DNA of 64,000 bases, taken from the NCBI GenBank assembly GCA_964607765.1, contig CAZSNT010000033.1:3955-67954 (forward strand). The letters run 5' to 3'. Source of the stretch: an uncultured Victivallales bacterium. Lineage in GTDB: Bacteria; Verrucomicrobiota; Lentisphaeria; Oligosphaerales; JABHEG01. Each line of letters begins with the position of its first letter. Position 1 is the first letter of the stretch. Position numbers and translations under genes: made by a program. Below the pieces are notes generated by a model, which did not search any database, had not been told where the DNA came from, and saw nothing but the letters and a program-made list of their open reading frames with translations. Shown here piece by piece: positions 5,676 through 55,114 of this stretch.

Positions 5676-5912
5676 ATGTCCGGAAAACGCCACCGCGAGC
5701 CCCCAACCGTTTTCCGGACATCCAGCACCGTCAACGGAGATGCCCACAGGCCCGAAGCATGTCCGGAAAACACCACCGTCTGCCCACCACCCGTTTTCCG
5801 GACGAGAAGAGAGAGGCGCAGAAGAGGAGACACGAGGACCAACACGACAGTGGAAGTGACGCAGGACCGGAAAACGGGTGCCACCGACGGGAAACCAGAC
5901 CGTTTTCCGGAC
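5676..5912. repeat. Array of three hairpin units built from inverted GTCCGGAAAAC / GTTTTCCGGAC arms
   Basis: Unit 1 is ATGTCCGGAAAACG 5676-5689 paired with CGTTTTCCGGACAT 5708-5721 (14-bp perfect arms, 18-nt loop). Unit 2 is 5761-5771 with 5793-5803 (21-nt loop). Unit 3 is GACCGGAAAACGG 5865-5877 with CCGTTTTCCGGAC 5900-5912 (one mismatch, 22-nt loop). All three loops contain CCACCG. Confidence 0.9.
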
Positions 5913-6010
5913 AGGCGGCAGAGCCCCTCTCAACACGTCCCCCCAGAAAAACGCCTGGGCCTGCCGCGGACGCGCGCGCCGCGGCGTTGCCGGAGCGTGT
6001 CCGGCCGCCT

Positions 6011-9454: not shown

Positions 9455-11515
9455 ATGGGAACGCATCACACAAGCAGAGCCCTGATACTGTCGCTCTCGC
9501 TGGCGGGAGGCCTGACGGCTTGCCGCGCGCGGCAGCGAACAGCAACTGTGGAACGCACGGGCGCACGAGAGGAACGCGGAACCGTGGGAACCGTCACTGT
9601 CACACCGCAGGAATTCACCGGTGCCATCAACAACCCGTTGAAGGGATTCCGAAGCTACCATGCCAACGGCTACGGATTGCTGCATCGTCAGTATGTGCCC
9701 TGGAACGCGGTCGAGGCGTGTGCCGGGGACACCGTTGAGCGGGTCATCGCATACACCAACAGAATCGCACAGCGACACGGCAAGGCATTCGGCGAACTGA
9801 ACGTCAAACTCGTGCCGCGTGTGTTCCTGGACTGGGACGGAACCCGGGGCACGGCCGAGCGCCCCAAACAACACTGGCCGGCCGACATGCACGAATTCGA
9901 CTATGACAGCCCCGAGTTCCACCAACGACTGGTCAGGCTGATAGAGAAACTCGGACAAGCATGGGACAACGACCCCCGCGTTTTCGCGATCCAGATGGGG
10001 CTGATCGGGTACTGGGGCGAGCATCACAACCCCGCGCCCACGCGTGCAGAGCGCCGCCTGCTGGTGGATGCGTTCCGCAAAGCGTTCAAGAGCAAACCGA
10101 TCCTTGTGCGACACACTGACAAGGAGTTCATGGAAGCTGGCTTCGGGATCTACTATGACACCTTCGCCAACGTCGGCCGCGAGCCGCATATGGCGGACAA
10201 GCACGCCCACATCAAGGGACAGTTCCCCTGGCAGGCGATGCACGTCTACCCGAGCATCTGGAAGCGGTCCCCGATCGAAGGGGAAGTGGAGTACAATTGG
10301 CAGAAGCAACGGCCGGATGCCGACCCTGAAGGCACGTTCGGGCGCACCCCCGACGAGACAATGACCGAGCCCGCCTACCGCCGGTACATGATCGACAAGA
10401 TCCGCAGATACCACGCGAGCTACCTCGGCTGGATCTCCGGCTACTCGTCCGACCAGCCCGAGGTCCTCGCCGGTGCGGCTGCGCTGCAGAAAGCGTTCGG
10501 GTACCGCTTCGTGATCGAGTCCTTCACCTACACGCCCACCGTCCAACCGGGGGAAGACGTACTTGTCGAATTCACCGTGCGGAACACGGGAAGCGCGCCT
10601 TTCTACCTGAACTGGCCCGTAGCCGTGGCACTCCTCGACCCGGCGACACGACAACCCGTATGGTTCGCCCCGCTGCCGGACGTGGATATCCGGACGTGGC
10701 TGCCCGGCGAGGGCTGGGATGGCGAGACCTTCTCTTACGCCACGGGTCCCAAGACCTGGACTGCGAAGGCAACTGTGACCACGCCGGAGGACACCAGCCC
10801 TGGCGAGTACATCATTGCGCTCGCGATCCTCGACCGTGGAGGGGGGATGGCGCCAAGCGTGCGCTTCGCCATCAGCAACTACTTCTCTGGCGGCTGGCAT
10901 CCATTCGGCTACCTCGGCGTTGGTGTGCCTCCACGCGGGACAACGGTCGACGGGGTGGCCTTCGACAGTCCGGCGTTCGACCGCTCCCTGAGCTACCGCG
11001 TACCGACAGAGATCCTTGCCGTCCAATCGCCACCCGTCCCACAGATCGAGAAGCCGGAGCGTTGGGCACCGAATCCCGCCGTGGAGCTCATCAATCCCTG
11101 GAGGTACTGGTGCCTGGTACGACGAACAGACACGGTGCAGAAGAAGATCCGCCACGACGGACCGGTCAGCGGCCCCGCCGGCCGCAAGGCGATCGTCGTG
11201 CGCGGAGATTACGGACGCGGCTCGAACCTGAACTACGCGTTCTTCGACAACGGAAGGCTGGAACCGGGGCCTTACCGCTTCTCATGTCGAGTCAGAGGCA
11301 CTGAAGGACAGACCGCCCGGTTCGATGTGGCCGACGGCTGGCGCAGCGTCGCTGCGGCCACCGACCTGGCCCTCACGTCTGCCTGGCTGCAGCACGTCGT
11401 CGACTTCGAGATCAAGGCGCCGTTCAAGAGCGTCACGCGCCTCCGCTTCCACCTGCAGAACGACGTCAGTGGCGAATTCGGCCTCACCGACTACCATCTC
11501 CTCCGCAGGAACTGA
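9455..11515 (+). CDS. Putative exported glycoside hydrolase-like protein (DUF4832-like core), possibly a lipoprotein
   Basis: ORF 9095..11515, trimmed to ATG 9455 (MGTHHTSRALILSLSLAGGLTAC, signal/lipobox-like). NPLKGFRSY... and RVFAIQMGLIGYWGEHHNP resemble the GxIGxWGEWH block I recall from DUF4832/DUF4874 proteins. The family call rests on memory only. Confidence 0.55.
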   Translation: MGTHHTSRALILSLSLAGGLTACRARQRTATVERTGAREERGTVGTVTVTPQEFTGAINNPLKGFRSYHANGYGLLHRQYVPWNAVEACAGDTVERVIAYTNRIAQRHGKAFGELNVKLVPRVFLDWDGTRGTAERPKQHWPADMHEFDYDSPEFHQRLVRLIEKLGQAWDNDPRVFAIQMGLIGYWGEHHNPAPTRAERRLLVDAFRKAFKSKPILVRHTDKEFMEAGFGIYYDTFANVGREPHMADKHAHIKGQFPWQAMHVYPSIWKRSPIEGEVEYNWQKQRPDADPEGTFGRTPDETMTEPAYRRYMIDKIRRYHASYLGWISGYSSDQPEVLAGAAALQKAFGYRFVIESFTYTPTVQPGEDVLVEFTVRNTGSAPFYLNWPVAVALLDPATRQPVWFAPLPDVDIRTWLPGEGWDGETFSYATGPKTWTAKATVTTPEDTSPGEYIIALAILDRGGGMAPSVRFAISNYFSGGWHPFGYLGVGVPPRGTTVDGVAFDSPAFDRSLSYRVPTEILAVQSPPVPQIEKPERWAPNPAVELINPWRYWCLVRRTDTVQKKIRHDGPVSGPAGRKAIVVRGDYGRGSNLNYAFFDNGRLEPGPYRFSCRVRGTEGQTARFDVADGWRSVAAATDLALTSAWLQHVVDFEIKAPFKSVTRLRFHLQNDVSGEFGLTDYHLLRRN

Positions 11516-11568: not shown

Positions 11569-12396
11569 TCACGCAGCGGCACGCCACGGCACGGCTGCCG
11601 CCTTGCGCAACGCCGTGCAGGTAGTGCGGATCCCGCACAAGCGCGACGCCCGCTCCACGACACGACGAATGGTCCGGGTCGACACCGGGCATGCGCGACG
11701 GGGTGATGGAAGCAGCCATGCGACCTCGGCCCGTTCATCTGCGGCAATTCCGAGCGGAATTGGCTCGGAGCTCTGCTTGTCGTCCGGGCGGGCGCGGTGC
11801 CCGTTCCGTCCGGCATGCAATGCCCCTTTCGGTGCGGCCACCATGCGCAATTGCCCCGGCCGGAGCTTGGTCTGGTTCAGCATGTCGATCACCAACCGGT
11901 CCCGCTCCCCCCTGCACGCCCCCCTCAGCAGACGCACCTCCTCCTCTGTGGCCGGCGCGCGTGGCGCCGGTCGCGGCGCGTGCTGTATCCCGACCGTGAT
12001 CCCCAGGCGGAGCAGTCGGTCAAAAACGGCACGCAGCGCACACAGATGCAGCCGCTGCGTGCCATATCCCAGGCCAGCCCTCCTCAGCTCTGCCAGATAC
12101 TCGACAACATCGTCGGCGGTCAACTCGCCCGGCTTCGGGCACCCGACACTCCGCAGGAAACGGGCAACGCAACTGACGTACTTGGCAGCAGTGCTCGCGG
12201 CATAACCCCTGTCGGTGAGAACATCCCGCAGCGTTCCCAGGTCTGATCCGGCATTCAGACCAACCCCATCGGGCTTCTCCCGGGCCATCCTGCGACGCTG
12301 TACGGTGTCCAGACACCACTCCATCACATCGAAGACCGATCGAGCCACCATCGCCGGCAGTCCCAGCCCCACGAAATCCCCGCCAGCGCCAACCAT
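11569..12396 (-). pseudogene. Tyrosine recombinase/integrase-like gene, C-terminally truncated and degenerate
   Basis: ATG 12396 lies 7 nt after AAGGAG. The N-terminal SAM-like core-binding region is present (YAASTAAKYVSCVARFLRSVG...DVVEYLAELRR...GTQRLHLCALRAVFD). A box I-like LRPGQLRMV and STRTIRRVVERASRLCGI are also present. The ORF then ends in TCTALRKAAAVPWRAAA, without the HxxR...GH...Y catalytic end. Confidence 0.6.
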
Positions 12397-12496
12397 CACC
12401 ACACTCCTTGCTTTTTTAGACTTCTCTTTATTAGTACGTTAACGCCGTGTCTCTCGTTGTCAAGCGCTCCCTATCGTTCCGCCCGCACCTGGTGCT

Positions 12497-12754
12497 GTTC
12501 TCCGGACAACAGCCCGGCCATCGCATCATCTGATGCCCGGATAGCGGGTGGAACCGTTCCCCTCGTCGTACTTGTTTTCCGGACGGCCGCGCAACGGTGA
12601 CGGGCAGCCCGCACCCAGAGGCGTGAGCGGATCGTATTTGCCGCCACACTCGTTTTCCGGACACGCGCAGTTCGTGAACCGTTGTCGGAGGCCGGTGCAG
12701 GACGTCCGGAAAACACGGAGTGGGCGGGTTGCCGGCGGGGTCTGTTTTCCGGAC
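12497..12754. repeat. Motif array: three direct copies at a 77-78 bp period followed by one inverted pair
   Basis: The direct copies are GTTCTCCGGAC 12497-12507 (one mismatch) and GTTTTCCGGAC 12574-12584 and 12652-12662. They are followed by GTCCGGAAAAC 12704-12714 paired with GTTTTCCGGAC 12744-12754 (29-nt spacer). The array sits in a 668-bp divergent gap next to the truncated recombinase. Confidence 0.85.
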
Positions 12755-12831
12755 ACGCGGGTGGGTTGGCCGAGGAGAGTGTGCTGCGGGGGCAGGGAGG
12801 GGAGGAGCGCGGGGGCAAGGTGTGTGTCGCG

Positions 12832-12850: not shown

Positions 12851-13064
12851 TTCCTTGTGCGCAACCCGCGCAGCCGCTATGCTATTGGCAGGACGGCGGC
12901 GGGCAGCGGCTGGCTCGACATGGGTGTTGCCAGGCGTTCTTGCCGCCGGTTCTCCGGGCGCCGGCAGCAGCTCTGAGACGGCACGGAGACCTGTCGGCCG
13001 AAGGCCCCCCGGAGTACCTGCCGGTCACACGCCGCGTCAGAAGCAACACTGGAGGTGTGGTTCC

Positions 13065-16007
13065 ATGCGCATGCCACTGAGCGGGTCAGCGATCGTGCTG
13101 GCCGTATTCCCCGTCCTTGTCGCAGCCGAGACGACGAAGCCGCGGAACCTGGCTCGGGAGGCCACGATCACGGCGACGTCGGAGTACAACGATCAGTACG
13201 CGGCGCGGTTCGTTGCGGACGGCATCATCCCGGACGCAGGGAAGCGCAACAGCGTCGGCAAAGAATGGGCCGTGAAGGGCTCTACGCACAAGTCCGGGGC
13301 TGATCTGACCATGCAATGGCAGGAGCCGGTTCAGATCGCCCAGATTGTCTACTACGGCCGCAGTTCGTTTGCCGTGGAGGCATGGCGCGAGTGTGAGGTG
13401 TACCTGGATGGCGCCGACGCGCCGTCCACCAAAGCGAGCCTCAAACCCGGCCATGGTCCGCAGCGAGTGACACTCGAGCGCCCTGCGACGGCCGCCAAGC
13501 TGCGCCTCAAGTTCATCGGGCACCACAGTTGTGTCAATCCGGGTGCCGCCGAGATCGAGGTCTGTGCCGAGCCGCCGGCCGACACGGCGTTGGGCAAATT
13601 CCTGCCCATGCCACCCATGCACGGCGCCCACGGCGAACCGCCGGTTGTTGTCCCGGCCATCAAGGAGTCGCCGGAACTGGCTGAGAAGCTCCGCTCAGGC
13701 AAGCTGGGGTTTTCACGGTTGCTCCTGGTCCAGCGCCATGCCTATCGTATCAGCCATGTTTACGTGTACCACGTGGAGTGTTTCAAGCCCGGCGGCGGCA
13801 TCTACATCTTCACCCCGGACGAGAATGGGGGAAAGAAGGAGAGGATCTTTGATGCCGGTCAAGGCGAGGTCATGGACTGTGCCCTCTCCTACGACGGCAC
13901 GGAGATCCTGTTCAGCTACAAGAAGCGCCACATTGGCGGCCTGAACCATATGATCACGGAAACGGATGGGCACTACCAGGTATACCGGATGAGTCTGGTC
14001 GACCGGCAACCCGTACTGCTGACCAGCCACTACTCCAACAACTTCAACCCTTGCTGGCTGCCGGACGGCCGAATCGCATTCCTTTCCGATCGGAAGCTCT
14101 CGTTCGCTTACTGTTTCACCAGTTCGTCGCCTCTGCTCTACCGGATGGACCGGGACGGCTCCAACGTCTTCAAGCTCTCGCACGGCTACCTGAACGACTT
14201 CACCCCAAGCGTACTTAACAACGGCAAAATCATCTACAGTCGCTGGGAATATGTAGACCGCCCGGCCTGCCCTATCCAAAGCCTATGGACACTCAATCCG
14301 GACGGCACGCGGTCCGAGGGTTTTTTCGGCAACCGTGTGTTGGAGCCCGGCACGTTCATGGAGGCCCGCGCCATTGGCAGCACAGGCAAAGTGCTTTGCG
14401 TAATGACGGGGCACAACGGCTGCTGTCGCGGCGCTCTCGGGATCATCGATCCGTCCAAGGGCGCCAACGCCCAGGAAGGCATCACCAATATCACCCCGGA
14501 GATCCACGTTCCGCCCGTGACCGGCAGGCCCGGACTGAAAGGGAACGCGTTGGTGAACCGCGGCCCGTATGAGAACCCCTTCCCGGTGGACGAGACGTAT
14601 TTCCTTGTGTCGAAGCTCGGCACGATAGTCCTGCGCGACTATGCGCGGACAGAGTGTGCGGTTGTGGCGCGCCCGGAAGGCAAGATGGGCTTCTACTCGC
14701 CCATCCCGATCCGAGAGGCCGAGCCGCCCCCGGTCATTCCGTCGACGTTGCCGGAAGGCGAGCAGGAGCCGTGGGGCACGGTGCTGATGCAGGACGTCTA
14801 CAATGGCCTGACACCGGATGTGGAGCGCGGCGAGATCAAGCAGATCGCGGTTGTCGAAGAAGTGGAGAAAGGGGACTACGCCCCACACAAAGGGATTTTC
14901 GGTTTCCAGTTCCCGCTGGTGTCCTGTGGCGCCACGTACGCTGCCAAGAAGCTGTGGGGTTACGCCACGGTCGAGGAAGACGGTTCGGCTCACTTCAAAG
15001 TCCCATCAGAAATCCCCATCTACTTCCTGGCCCTCGACAGGGAGGGACGCGCCGTGCAGAGGATGCGCACGCTGACGCACTTCCAGCGCGGCGAGGAACA
15101 AAGCTGCATCGGCTGTCACGCCGAGCGCAATTACGCAACCCCAACCGAACGAAACACGCGTTCCGTTGCCGCGCGCCGCCCTCCGCAGGAGCTCGTTCCC
15201 CCGGAGTGGGGACGACGCAAGTTCGATTATTCCTCGATCGTGCAGCCGGTGTGGGACAAATACTGCATTTCGTGCCACAACCCGCGCAGTCAGACGAAAG
15301 GCATCGACCTGACTGGCGACAAGACAGACTTTTGGTGTGTCTCGTACGAGTACCTCGCGAGGAAGGGAACACACGGCGAGAGGAACCCGTTCCAGCACGG
15401 TGTGCGCTCTCTCGCCGATGTTGGACAGAACCCCTACGTGAAGTGGATCTCAACCATCAACGGGGCGGGTGAGAACATCCTGATGATCAAGCCCCGCACC
15501 TGGGGCGCATACCCGAGCAGGCTCACGAAAGTGATCATGACGGGACACCCTGACCGCTCGAGACGGAAGCGCTTCAACATGGACGCGACCTCAATGCGTC
15601 GGGTGTTCGCCTGGATGGACCTCAATGTGCCTTACTACAAAGACTCGAAGACCAACCACCCGAGTCAGCGCGGCAGCAGGATGATGCGACCACAAGATCT
15701 GGATAAGGTGCTTGAGGATGTACGCAAACGGCGCTGCGCGGAGTGCCACGAGAAGACGCCGCGCAAGTTCTACACGCGCATCACGAACATCGAAGAGAAC
15801 CAATTCCTCTCCGCGCCGTTAGCCACCTCGGCAGGCGGAACGCAGCGATGCGGAACGGCCGTTTTCCGGACAAAGGACGATCCCGACTACCAGGCCATTC
15901 TGAAGACGTTCGAGCCCATTACGAAACTGATGGCGACCCGCCCCCGCCTCGACTTCCCTGACGCCGTTTACGTCCCGCACAGCCAGGCTTGCCCTGTCCG
16001 GTACTGA
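13065..16007 (+). CDS. Exported multidomain protein: F5/8 type C-like domain, TolB/PD40-like beta-propeller region and a C-terminal region with three CxxCH motifs
   Basis: ORF 12720..16007, trimmed to ATG 13065, 8 nt after GGAGGT (MRMPLSGSAIVLAVFPVLVAAE signal). The N-terminus has ...FVADGIIPD...VQIAQIVYYGR...LRLKF. The middle has repeated ...LSYDGTEILFSY..., ...WLPDGRIAFLSDR... and ...LNNGKIIYSRWEY... strands. CIGCH is at 15105-15119, CISCH at 15264-15278 and CAECH at 15735-15749. The second (VQPVWDKYCISCHNP...KGIDLTGD) resembles the planctomycete cytochrome-c-like (PSCyt) domain. Confidence 0.7.
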   Translation: MRMPLSGSAIVLAVFPVLVAAETTKPRNLAREATITATSEYNDQYAARFVADGIIPDAGKRNSVGKEWAVKGSTHKSGADLTMQWQEPVQIAQIVYYGRSSFAVEAWRECEVYLDGADAPSTKASLKPGHGPQRVTLERPATAAKLRLKFIGHHSCVNPGAAEIEVCAEPPADTALGKFLPMPPMHGAHGEPPVVVPAIKESPELAEKLRSGKLGFSRLLLVQRHAYRISHVYVYHVECFKPGGGIYIFTPDENGGKKERIFDAGQGEVMDCALSYDGTEILFSYKKRHIGGLNHMITETDGHYQVYRMSLVDRQPVLLTSHYSNNFNPCWLPDGRIAFLSDRKLSFAYCFTSSSPLLYRMDRDGSNVFKLSHGYLNDFTPSVLNNGKIIYSRWEYVDRPACPIQSLWTLNPDGTRSEGFFGNRVLEPGTFMEARAIGSTGKVLCVMTGHNGCCRGALGIIDPSKGANAQEGITNITPEIHVPPVTGRPGLKGNALVNRGPYENPFPVDETYFLVSKLGTIVLRDYARTECAVVARPEGKMGFYSPIPIREAEPPPVIPSTLPEGEQEPWGTVLMQDVYNGLTPDVERGEIKQIAVVEEVEKGDYAPHKGIFGFQFPLVSCGATYAAKKLWGYATVEEDGSAHFKVPSEIPIYFLALDREGRAVQRMRTLTHFQRGEEQSCIGCHAERNYATPTERNTRSVAARRPPQELVPPEWGRRKFDYSSIVQPVWDKYCISCHNPRSQTKGIDLTGDKTDFWCVSYEYLARKGTHGERNPFQHGVRSLADVGQNPYVKWISTINGAGENILMIKPRTWGAYPSRLTKVIMTGHPDRSRRKRFNMDATSMRRVFAWMDLNVPYYKDSKTNHPSQRGSRMMRPQDLDKVLEDVRKRRCAECHEKTPRKFYTRITNIEENQFLSAPLATSAGGTQRCGTAVFRTKDDPDYQAILKTFEPITKLMATRPRLDFPDAVYVPHSQACPVRY

Positions 16008-16021
16008 TCCGGAGGCGCAGC

Positions 16022-16376
16022 CATTGGTCGTTGCGCTGCACGCGTCATTGGTCACTGGTCATTGGCGGGGTCGCGGCGAAGTCAAGCAGCAGGTGAGCCG
16101 GAAAACGTGTCTGCAGCAGGTGGGCCGGCATGCGCGGAGGGGGCTGAGATCGCACCAATGTTCTCGTTCCCACGACTACGTGTTTTCCGGACATCCCAGG
16201 CACGAACGGGGCAGTCTATTGGGATAGCTTCGCGGCGACGGCCAATGACCGAAAACAGATGACTCCGCCGCGGTGTTTTCCGGACGTTCCAGGCGAGAAC
16301 GAGGCAGGCTGACTGACTGGCGGCGCGAGGGCGACCAATGACCGAGGAGCGGCGCCCACCCTGGTGTTTTCCGGAC
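16022..16376. repeat. Composite repeat region: three ~90-bp tandem units each ending in GTGTTTTCCGGAC, plus long-range inverted CATTGGTC / GACCAATG boxes
   Basis: GTTTTCCGGAC occurs at 16182-16192, 16275-16285 and 16366-16376, at spacings of 93 and 91 bp. Each is preceded by a CCAATG box (16155, 16241, 16333). Decayed left arms are GAGCCGGAAAAC at 16096 and GACCGAAAAC at 16247. Upstream, CATTGGTC is at 16022 and 16046 and GGTCATTGGC at 16057-16066. GGTCATTGGC is the exact reverse complement of GCCAATGACC 16241-16250, and GTCATTGGTC 16044-16053 is that of GACCAATGAC 16333-16342. The region lies in a convergent gap. Confidence 0.85.
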
Positions 16377-16422
16377 AAGACCAAACCGAGCCGCCGTTCC
16401 CCCGCGGCGCGCCCCCCGGGTC

Positions 16423-17352
16423 TCAGACCGAACCGTCTCCCAAGCGGCGGCATATTTCCGCAGCCAGTGTCCCGGCACGACGGCAGTAGTGGGCGTCGCC
16501 GAACAGCCAGACGTGGATCATCATGGTGTTCAGCCAATAATACAGCCGTCGGAACTCGAATCCGGGCCGCAGCCCGCTTCCCGCTGTATAGACCTTGGCG
16601 AACGTCGGGCCCACGGTACGGAAGCACTGCAGGTACGCCAGTTCGTGCTCAACGTCAGCATACTGCGCGCCCGGATCGATGAAGCCCGTCACTTGCCAGG
16701 AGCCGTTGCAGCGCGCGACCATAATGTTACCCGCCCACAGATCGCCATGGATCAGCGTTGGCCTGCCCTGGTCCCGAAACACGGTGGGCGCCGCTTCGAC
16801 CGCTCTGTCGATATCCACGAGCGCAGACGCGGGGAGCCGTCCCTGCACCTCGCCGCGCATGTCCTGCAGACGCGGCACGGCGATCGCCGCCCAGGTGTCT
16901 GTTCCCGGCCCATCCCCGATCGGGCCGAACGTGGCCCGGGTATGCGTGTGCAGTTCCAGCAGCGTCTCAGCCAGCTGCTCGTCAATGCGTCGTTGCGCCT
17001 CATCCTCAAGCATGACAGATGTCAGCGGCGTGCCCGGAAGACACTCCAGCAGCAGGGATCGGCAAGGGACGACGTCGTCCGGGTCGCCGATGGCATAGAC
17101 GGCCGGACAGCGCATCCGGCTGTGCTCACGCAGGTAGTCCAGGCGTCGTTCTTCACCGCGGAAATCGCCGTCGGGATTCATCTTCACCACGGCCCGGTAA
17201 GGTGCGTGGTCGAACTCCAGGCGAAGCACTGAGTTGATCATCCCGCCGCTCAGCCGAGCAACACGCTCGCACTGCACAGGCACGCCCAGCCAACGTTCGA
17301 GAAGGTGTTCCGCCTGTTCCGAGCTGATTGCAAGTCCGGTTGACAACATCAT
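16423..17352 (-). CDS. Fructosamine/ketosamine-3-kinase family protein (APH-like kinase fold)
   Basis: 309-aa ORF. It contains LIHGDLWAGNIMV (the HxDxxxxN catalytic loop) and FIDPGAQYADVEHELAYL, typical of the fructosamine kinase family. Confidence 0.8.
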   Translation of the reverse strand: MMLSTGLAISSEQAEHLLERWLGVPVQCERVARLSGGMINSVLRLEFDHAPYRAVVKMNPDGDFRGEERRLDYLREHSRMRCPAVYAIGDPDDVVPCRSLLLECLPGTPLTSVMLEDEAQRRIDEQLAETLLELHTHTRATFGPIGDGPGTDTWAAIAVPRLQDMRGEVQGRLPASALVDIDRAVEAAPTVFRDQGRPTLIHGDLWAGNIMVARCNGSWQVTGFIDPGAQYADVEHELAYLQCFRTVGPTFAKVYTAGSGLRPGFEFRRLYYWLNTMMIHVWLFGDAHYCRRAGTLAAEICRRLGDGSV

Positions 17353-17769
17353 GTTATGAGTTCGACGGTCTCTGTTTGCTGCGTCCGATCAGGTGTACCC
17401 TAGTCACCCGGGAATGCTCCTGCAATGCTCGAATCCTGATTGGTGGAACAACGGGCAACGTAATCCATTTCGTTGTCAGCATGCCATGGCAGCGAACTTC
17501 GACACACAGACTGCCACGCCTACAGCACCGGACTCTCAAGAGAAGAGACTGAGAAATGGACCTGCATTCTGCTGCTCACAAACTACTAACAACACACTAG
17601 GTTGCTGAATGCCGGCCGTTGGCCGCTTCGAATCCCACACAGAAAGACGGTGATATTGCCCTGCTTGCGGCAAAAACGTAATCGTTTACTGTTCACGACT
17701 TGAACGTCGTGCAGACAGCGGTATTCTCTACAAACGAAACACTGAATCCGGACCGGACAGGAGAAGACG

Positions 17770-21944: not shown

Positions 21945-21979
21945 GTTTTCCGGACACCTGAACACCGAACACCGAACAC
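21945..21979 (+). repeat. GTTTTCCGGACA copy fused to a CYGAACA heptamer x3 repeat, just upstream of a sulfatase start
   Basis: GTTTTCCGGAC is at 21945-21955 and is followed by cctgaaca ccgaaca ccgaaca (21957-21978). The ATG of the next gene is at 21991. Confidence 0.8.
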
Positions 21980-21990
21980 TGGAAGCCACG

Positions 21991-54893: not shown

Positions 54894-55114
54894 GACCGGA
54901 AAACACCACCAACACCACGACGACACCACCGACGACCGGAAAACACCCACCGACGACCGGAAAACAGCCACCCACGACCGGAAAACGCCGCCACGCAGCC
55001 CAGCCCCCGTGCCGGACGAGGATCGGCCTGCCGGCGCAGCTGTTTTCCGGACATCTCGCCCCTGGCGCAGCTGTTTTCCGGACATCTCGACCCTGTCGCC
55101 GCTGTTTTCCGGAC
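54894..55114. repeat. Motif array: four direct GACCGGAAAAC copies facing three direct GTTTTCCGGAC copies
   Basis: GACCGGAAAAC is at 54894, 54934, 54955 and 54976 (spacing 40, 21, 21 bp), each followed by a CCACC-like tract. GTTTTCCGGAC is at 55042, 55073 and 55104 within a 31-bp tandem unit GCAGCTGTTTTCCGGACATCTCG. The array lies in the divergent gap between starts 54776 (-) and 55234 (+). Confidence 0.9.

Follow-up and report, generated by a model that had tools for sequence, protein, structure and literature searches.

The intergenic gap studied here (16008-16422 of the 64-kb window, by which we mean the whole stretch of DNA analysed) lies between two convergent genes, a plus-strand gene of 1095 codons that probably starts at 12879 and stops at 16007, and a minus-strand gene of the fructosamine kinase/APH family that stops at 16423. 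The stretch 16022-16376 within it is an intergenic array in which a lineage-specific interspersed word, YGTTTTCCGG(A/T)CA, occurs three times directly and once inverted, and a gene for a truncated Xer-like protein (P0001), a candidate binder of the word, is located 3.6 kb away. It is very likely that this stretch is one array of this clade-specific interspersed DNA word and not a local terminator or RNA. The first-pass annotation had described a convergent gap with ~90-bp tandem units and boxes pairing at a distance; it was right about the convergent setting and the units, and every string that it quoted is present where it had been placed.

Three exact copies of GTGTTTTCCGGAC, recurring with periods of 93 and 91 bp, end the three tandem units U0, U1 and U2 (Table 1); U1 and U2 are 74% identical over 73 nt, and the word is matched 13/13 in all three units. 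In U1, a decayed left (inverted) arm sits 22 nt upstream of the perfect right arm and corresponds to GACCGGAAAAC minus one base, GACCGGAAAAC being a frequent variant arm that is found also at 5867 and at 54896-54978. The CCAATGACC box at 16242-16250 is the outer flank of this decayed arm, GACCGAAAAC occupies 16247-16256, and the decay of the left arm grows progressively worse in U2 and U0. The inverted copy of the word, which had been overlooked in the first reading, is part of an inverted copy of the unit at ~16016-16108: on alignment of U0-U2 with the reverse complement of 16016-16108, the CCAATG boxes share one column in 4/4 sequences, and CTTCGCCGCGAC..CCAATGACC is in register with U1. Likewise overlooked was a 7-bp microsatellite (GTCATTG x3.1, 16044-16065), inside which two of the three CATTGG boxes (16046 and 16060) fall. 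Of the long-range pairings, one joins GTCATTGGTC at 16044-16053 to GACCAATGAC at 16333-16342 and the other GGTCATTGGC at 16057-16066 to GCCAATGACC at 16241-16250. The observed numbers of 8-/9-mer inverted matches and of 8-10-mer direct matches in the gap were reached by 0/500 dinucleotide-preserving shuffles, and six CCAATG/CATTGG boxes are present in 355 bp, compared with 0.15 expected (P ~1e-8).

Table 1 Features of the studied gap and of the surrounding window (positions are those of the window).
Feature	Position	Strand	Basis
Word copy 1, GTGTTTTCCGGAC, end of unit U0 (16100-16192)	16180..16192	+	exact match
Word copy 2, GTGTTTTCCGGAC, end of unit U1 (16193-16285)	16273..16285	+	exact, 93 bp past copy 1
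Word copy 3, GTGTTTTCCGGAC, end of unit U2 (16286-16376)	16364..16376	+	exact, 91 bp past copy 2
Inverted, slightly degenerate word copy, GCCGGAAAACGTGTC (GACACGTTTTCCGGC on the minus strand)	16097..16111	-	
Decayed left (inverted) arm of U1, ATGACCG-AAAACA	16245..16257	+	sequence
CCAATGACC box of U2, then more decayed left arm GACCGAGGAGC	16335..16343	+	sequence, alignment
CCAATG box of U0, most decayed	16155..16160	+	alignment, sequence
CCAATG boxes	start 16155, 16242, 16335	+	exact
Three CATTGG boxes (16022, 16046, 16060)	16022..16065	+	exact
Gene for truncated Xer-like protein P0001 (275 aa), a candidate word binder	11569..12396	-	homology, fold, gene context
Left flanking gene, HZS_alpha / PD40 / F5_F8_type_C and cytochrome-c-like domains	12879..16007	+	domain matches
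Right flanking gene, fructosamine kinase / APH family	16423..17352	-	homology
Array of three hairpin-type modules: ATGTCCGGAAAAC, 19-27-nt non-conserved spacer, GTTTTCCGGACAT; period 83 and 105	5677..5913		word scan
Array in the divergent gap that precedes the Xer-like gene: a variant copy, two direct copies and a hairpin module	12495..12757		word scan
Array of four minus-strand copies (spacing 40, 21, 21), then three plus-strand copies (spacing 31, 31)	54894..55114		word scan

Because the left arm of U1 is one base short of GACCGGAAAAC and those of U2 and U0 are progressively decayed, the unit is taken to be a former hairpin module of the kind that forms the 5677-5913 array. The earlier suggestion of degenerating hairpin modules is thereby borne out, the unit termed B in that annotation keeping the left arm GACCG-AAAAC, one deletion from GACCGGAAAAC. 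The ancestor would have been a hairpin-type module whose left arm, ATG(T/A)CCGGAAAAC, was separated by a spacer from its right arm, GTTTTCCGGAC; from this module, tandem duplication would have produced the three ~92-bp units and a duplication in inverted orientation one further copy. The right arms would have been kept perfect and the left arms would have decayed, leaving the CCAATGACC boxes. The CCAATG boxes are the flanks of decayed inverted word copies, multiplied by the tandem and inverted duplications plus the 7-bp microsatellite, and the long-range 10-bp pairings are by-products of duplication, arising because the units were copied and their left arms decayed to CCAATGACC boxes. The proposal of a composite non-autonomous element holds only in part: the element does recur elsewhere, but the CATTGGTC...GACCAATG frame, whose recurrence as a unit had been put forward as a check, is found in this gap only, the 11-13-mer GTTTTCCGGAC(A) recurring instead, and no target-site duplications were seen.

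The word, GTTTTCCGGACA, of 12-13 bp, is dispersed well beyond the gap, a feature that the first reading of the locus had missed. GTTTTCCGGAC(A) is the most over-represented word of the whole 64-kb window: GTTTTCCGGAC is its commonest 11-mer, with 26 exact copies against 0.03 expected, and the 9-mer core CCGGAAAAC has 37 copies against 0.57 expected, both under a third-order Markov model whose expectations are themselves inflated by word copies. At up to two mismatches from the 13-mer, the window contains 35 sites, compared with 1.6 in shuffles. These copies make up four intergenic arrays (the studied gap and the three others listed in Table 1) plus single copies. Arrays are present in 4/5 of the window gaps of at least 390 bp, which are long because the arrays lengthen them, and they occupy divergent, convergent and tandem gaps; the 417-bp divergent gap at 17353-17769 is the sole long intergenic gap of the window without any word copy. 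An opposed layout, minus-strand copies followed by plus-strand copies, is common to the studied gap, to 54894-55114 and to an array at 16500-17060 of the related locus L071, the last comprising seven minus-strand copies with a period of ~76 and two plus-strand copies. Across this L071 array a 292-aa "gene" without Pfam match has been called (16386-17264), probably a spurious open reading frame (ORF) generated by the tandem units; arrays of this type inflate intergenic gaps and yield spurious ORF calls.

Pooled over six clade loci, intergenic DNA carries 4.4 word copies per kb and coding DNA 0.23. About one third of the copies lie in coding sequence, and in chromosomal sequence as a whole the word occurs ~0.6 times per kb. 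The ~14 coding copies of the window are distributed over three frames and both orientations and encode VFRT, FSG or FPD in sense and PEN, RKT or (S/T/A)GKH in antisense. One of them lies in frame within the left flanking gene (15861-15871, V-F-R-T), where six orthologues (~69-76% identical) have A-T-F-K/L/Q/A-S-K-D and this genome has A-V-F-R-T-K-D, encoded in part by GTT TTC CGG ACA; since the residues differ from those of the orthologues, the word was built here by amino-acid changes at tolerant positions. The occurrence of copies in genes, in every frame and in both orientations, shows that the word is a double-stranded DNA signal and not a peptide motif or an RNA stem. A polar signal resembling Chi or the FtsK-orienting polar sequences (KOPS) was considered and rejected, there being no strand skew (6 plus and 6 minus copies) in the co-oriented gene block at 17.7-50 kb. 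The in-gene copies are patchy, with eight in 5.4 kb (21.9-27.4 kb, a stretch with sulfatase genes) and none in 11 kb at 41-52 kb; the copy at 21945 is followed immediately by a short 7-nt tandem run, CACCGAACACCGAACAC (21956-21980), where the next gene starts. A second over-represented word of the window is the palindrome TGCGGA(C/G)TCCGCA, whose six copies (23557, 24624, 46845, 46971, 51306 and 53579) all fall, by position, in ORFs taken as genes, and which is present also in two contigs of the same clade (L045 at 113 and L073 at 7840).

In the loci L071, L073, L075, L066 and L084, the identical word leads the 9-mer or 11-mer counts; these loci represent a small clade of the Planctomycetes-Verrucomicrobia-Chlamydiae (PVC) superphylum. 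L071 alone contains 19 exact 11-mers in 20.8 kb, and the consensus YGTTTTCCGG(A/T)CA is unchanged across lineages whose Xer-like proteins are 41-45% identical. No copy of the 11-mer is present in 31 loci from other PVC relatives, which were identified by means of the 1095-aa flanking protein, and in these loci no synteny was seen between the gene for that protein and the kinase gene; the flanking protein has its closest orthologues in metagenome-assembled genomes that bear the labels Victivallales, Pirellulaceae or Planctomycetaceae. The window itself derives from a metagenomic bacterium of the PVC superphylum and is in part identical to a contig of metagenome run SRR8146442. A scan of Joint Genome Institute (JGI) metagenomes for the hairpin form returned 32 contigs, of which only L063 and L045 belong to the clade, nearly all of the remainder being unrelated long perfect palindromes with one word copy per arm. 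In viral contigs, three unrelated local arrays were found, and no homologue of the Xer-like protein. Literature searches returned only primers for the word itself; they yielded no paper describing such a repeat in PVC bacteria and no description of the word or of the Xer-like family.

The Xer-like family is small, with 17 homologues among 5.8 billion clustered proteins and 27 clusters at E < 1e-30 in an exhaustive profile search. The sole domain matched by P0001 is the N-terminal SAM-like (core-binding) domain of phage integrases. This domain is found in 16/16 family members and the catalytic domain PF00589 (E <= 0.01) in 0/16, and the scores of the family against the NCBIfam models for Xer and integron integrases are far below the cut-offs. 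Both domains are nevertheless recognisable at the level of profile and predicted structure, which show the two-domain core-binding plus catalytic fold of the DNA-clamp type: the family profile aligns with archaeal XerA (PDB 4a8e) over both domains (E = 7e-12), and the AlphaFold model (pLDDT 77) has XerA, lambda Int and IntI4 as its top Foldseek matches (E 1e-6 to 1e-5). All members end ~12 residues past an invariant T-C-T-A motif (TCTALRKA), which occupies the position of the recombinase HxLRH motif; its counterpart in the 292-residue XerA is TPHQLRHS at residue 231, and threonine stands in place of the motif histidine. In the family alignment, the first catalytic arginine (box I) is not conserved, nor is there a conserved C-terminal tyrosine; the longer relatives keep the T-C-T-A motif and add only low-complexity tails. 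An active tyrosine recombinase of the Xer/integrase type was rejected on these grounds, with no PF00589 match, no tyrosine helix and the R-H-R residues not kept. As judged from its sequence, the Xer-like protein is catalytically dead: it has no helix bearing the tyrosine nucleophile and is predicted to be unable to cut DNA.

The relation of this gene to the word was examined at the loci of nine Xer-like homologues, the core family being defined as the 273-278-aa members. In every core-family locus with enough upstream DNA, the word is found 100-600 nt upstream of the gene. The loci counted were the window, L066, L071, L073, L075, L084 and L076, the last with a single copy; L045 also shows the word upstream of a Xer-like homologue and was excluded from the count, having been found through the word. 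Upstream gaps with at least two word copies occur in 6/7 lineages, compared with 4/34 other gaps (Fisher P = 3e-4), and the genes neighbouring the Xer-like gene differ between lineages, so that there is no synteny. Each Xer-like gene has a canonical -35 box, which is TTGACA or differs little from it, with a TATAAT-like -10 box readable in several loci; in the window, TTGACA lies ~60 nt upstream of the ATG. The site nearest to the promoter has the same orientation in most lineages and is located 24-63 nt upstream of the -35 box. Its variant GTCCGGAGAAC is identical in the window (promoter stretch 12457-12507, minus strand) and in L073 (promoter stretch ~9900-9936), the two proteins being 43% identical, and this promoter-proximal site looks like a putative autoregulatory operator. 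At L083, a 173-aa remnant of the family (1872-2393) immediately follows a URO-D gene, and no copy of the word is present in the 9.5 kb of the locus, which makes a joint loss of protein and word possible.

A distant member of the family, P0036 (29% identical, locus L086), is bracketed by two dyads at 9895-9926 and 11230-11260. The dyad just upstream of the P0036 promoter, AGTTCGCGAAAAT-CCATGG-ATTTTCGCGAACT, has 13-bp arms and a 6-bp spacer, the canonical 13-6-13 geometry of a recombinase site, and a near copy lies ~250 nt past the stop codon. Its half-site agrees with the word of the window at 8/13 positions and has the same GAAAAY-inward polarity, and GTTTTCCGGAC is not over-represented in the locus. 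Other assemblies contain short contigs (L087-L089) that begin inside the dyad; such breaks suggest either that the dyad occurs repeatedly or that the gene and its sites move together as one unit.

Half-sites of recombinases measure 11-13 bp, as in dif, loxP and FRT, and the conserved length of the word, 12-13 bp, matches them. We propose, as the best reading, that the word is the 11-13-bp half-site of the dead Xer-like protein and that the arrays load several molecules of it side by side, and we consider the chances of this reading evenly balanced. With its core-binding domain and the larger part of the catalytic-domain fold preserved, the protein could still clamp DNA; an array would seat several molecules next to each other, and one placed between converging genes, like that studied here, could serve as a roadblock, an insulator or a nucleoid anchor, regulation being another option. 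The excess of the word, its presence in all frames and both orientations, its restriction to the clade, its association with the Xer-like gene and the loss of catalytic elements from the protein are observed, and to these the binding of the word by the Xer-like protein, together with the role of the bound arrays, is added as what we infer from sequence comparison.

Several points weigh against this reading. The link between gene and word is correlational and partly confounded by gap length, because gaps owe their length to arrays and those upstream of the gene are long. The joint loss concerns a single locus (L083), the 8/13 similarity of the L086 half-site could be due to chance, and P0036 is the one distant member inspected. 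The orientation of the word relative to genes is inconsistent, and the spacings of the copies (76-113, 21, 31 and 40 bp) show no consistent multiple of 10.5 bp that would indicate helical phasing. Furthermore, the selection of thousands of in-gene sites for a binder is left unexplained, and molecular drive, as for uptake sequences, would explain the in-gene copies more simply.

The predicted role of the Xer-like protein is worth comparing with those of known proteins of the same fold that act as DNA binders. MrpR (YopR) of the Bacillus phage SPbeta has a tyrosine-recombinase fold without recombinase function and binds the 15-bp SPBRE, which is repeated intergenically (PMC10516654). The Xer-like protein shares with MrpR the recombinase fold and the loss of catalysis, and its binding to the word is predicted. 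However, MrpR is a full-length protein that keeps the tyrosine, whereas the Xer-like protein lacks the whole C-terminal helix, and SPBRE is present in ~10 copies in the promoters of one prophage, whereas the word occurs at ~0.6 per kb on the chromosome, in genes and tandem arrays. The MrpR/YopR structures 8bj6 and 8a0a rank 42 and 49 among the fold matches, weakly (E ~1e-2, TM ~0.25), and MrpR is an analogue, not a member of the same family, with no sequence relationship. According to PMC11840125 (citing PMC7897262), XerD at the Bacillus XDS sites unloads the structural maintenance of chromosomes (SMC) complex, and an inserted XDS array blocks SMC and forms a chromosome boundary. XerD at XDS and XerA at dif in Thermococcus resemble the proposed system in that a Xer protein serves as a sequence-specific binder and not as an enzyme, and XerA proteins are the best sequence and fold matches of the Xer-like family. 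XerD and XerA, unlike the truncated protein described here with its sites everywhere, are active as recombinases and have a few sites only, located near the terminus.

The main rival explanation is that the word is a DNA uptake signal, like the uptake signal sequence (USS) of Pasteurellaceae or the DNA uptake sequence (DUS) of Neisseriaceae, preferred by a competence receptor; uptake bias and recombination would have spread the word in genes and gaps, and the arrays would be places that tolerate many copies. We regard this as unlikely, although it is the strongest of the alternatives and accounts for the in-gene copies at least as well as binding by the Xer-like protein does. USS and DUS are likewise short non-palindromic words, found about once per 1-2 kb on both strands, in all frames and within genes, paired in inverted orientation in gaps and conserved over a family-level clade. 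The word shows the same genome-wide excess on both strands and inside genes, at ~0.6 per kb; it is made in genes by non-synonymous changes at variable positions and with rare codons, forms inverted pairs in gaps, and is kept identical across lineages with proteins ~41-45% identical. What an uptake signal does not explain is the arrays themselves, the position of the word before the Xer-like gene in 6/7 non-syntenic lineages and the related dyad at a distant family member. Tandem arrays of 4-9 copies are not known to be typical of USS or DUS, and the inverted pairs have spacers of 19-29 nt and no T-run; transformation is not known to be documented in this clade, and no competence genes were seen, though no search aimed at them was made. 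The word differs from USS and DUS in its tandem arrays, in the long spacers between inverted copies and in the linked recombinase-like gene.

A less probable alternative is that the word is the site of another sequence-specific DNA-binding protein or of a genome-maintenance system, its adjacency to the Xer-like gene reflecting ordinary regulation. The word is indeed a DNA-level signal, its arrays lie in divergent, convergent and tandem gaps alike, and its tie to the Xer-like protein is correlational. However, the word and the Xer-like family share the same narrow distribution, the length of 11-13 bp fits a recombinase half-site, and the L086 dyad, with its canonical 13-6-13 geometry, adjoins a homologous gene.

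Lower still in probability stands the view that the modules are selfish elements copied by a transposase in trans, comparable to repetitive extragenic palindromes (REPs) and bacterial interspersed mosaic elements (BIMEs) or to miniature inverted-repeat transposable elements (MITEs). The lineage-specific hairpin-type modules, clustered in gaps in alternating orientation, and a single-copy recombinase-related gene flanked by repeats do recall REPs and their RAYT genes, and clusters of short repeats with alternating orientation and variable spacers, in gaps that include convergent ones, are known also from the NIME and dRS3 elements of Neisseria. REPs are, however, imperfect palindromes of 20-40 nt that are confined almost entirely to extragenic DNA and mobilised by an HUH (Y1) transposase, whereas the conserved unit here is a non-palindromic 12-13-mer, found as solo 11-mers in genes in all frames, with inter-arm spacers that are not conserved, no target-site duplications seen and an associated protein without a nucleophile. 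No transposase was noticed among the annotated ORFs of the window, most ORFs being unannotated. REP/MITE-like mobility is unlikely, and a REP/BIME system with RAYT was rejected, since about a third of the copies lie in coding sequence and the linked gene is Xer-like and not HUH. An integron attC array, or a cluster of attC sites lacking an integrase (CALIN), was also rejected: of the consensus R''(RYYYAAC)/R'(GTTRRRY), the arms GTCCGGAAAAC and GTTTTCCGGAC match no more than the AAC and GTT triplets, the module period of 76-113 bp leaves no room for cassettes, and the copies are dispersed, also in genes.

Function at the RNA level is unlikely, and the least probable reading of all is that the array acts as a terminator in both directions or as a structured RNA, either antisense, as in the first-pass annotation, or 3'-UTR, with boxes pairing over 180-290 nt: the gap is convergent, minimum-free-energy folds do pair the boxes and inverted matches exceed those in shuffles, but the folding energy is that of shuffles (z-scores +0.12 and -0.19 for the two strands), no stem plus T-run is found at 15800-16600 on either strand (shuffle mean 1.0), Rfam 15 gives no match at the gathering score over the whole window and none at E <= 1 over 15900-16500, decay has affected the left arms but not the right ones (13/13), the position of the word that varies between A and T (GGAC vs GGTC) is uncompensated between the arms of a module, and solo copies occur inside genes in both orientations. 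The inter-arm spacers are unrelated in sequence, and a promoter scan of the gap found no sigma-70-like promoter.

Returning to the Xer-like protein as the binder of the word, a bolder extension, which we hold only tentatively and consider somewhat doubtful, is that this PVC clade turned a Xer-type recombinase into a truncated, non-catalytic, sequence-specific chromosome protein whose 13-bp half-site, at thousands of copies within genes and in arrays between them, forms a genome-wide organising code. The arrays would then be roadblocks or boundaries for SMC or RNA polymerase, or nucleoid anchors, and the relatives represented by L086 would show the ancestral state with a canonical 13-6-13 site. 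If true, such a code would be a new class of recombinase-derived nucleoid-associated system, in which protein and site co-evolve. Each ingredient has known analogues; what appears to be new is their combination, which unites a chromosome-wide word that is also present in genes with a truncated recombinase-like partner and with a canonical site in a sister lineage. Abundant short words of bacteria (USS/DUS, Chi, KOPS, REP and HIP1) have each proved to mark an important process, and it is seldom that a newly found one comes with a protein partner that can be identified; in the present case, sequence alone suffices to name the word, the clade and a candidate binder. If the binding is confirmed, the reuse of tyrosine recombinases as DNA binders, as in the phage repressor MrpR and at the few XerD sites, would widen to a whole-chromosome system in a poorly studied group of PVC bacteria.

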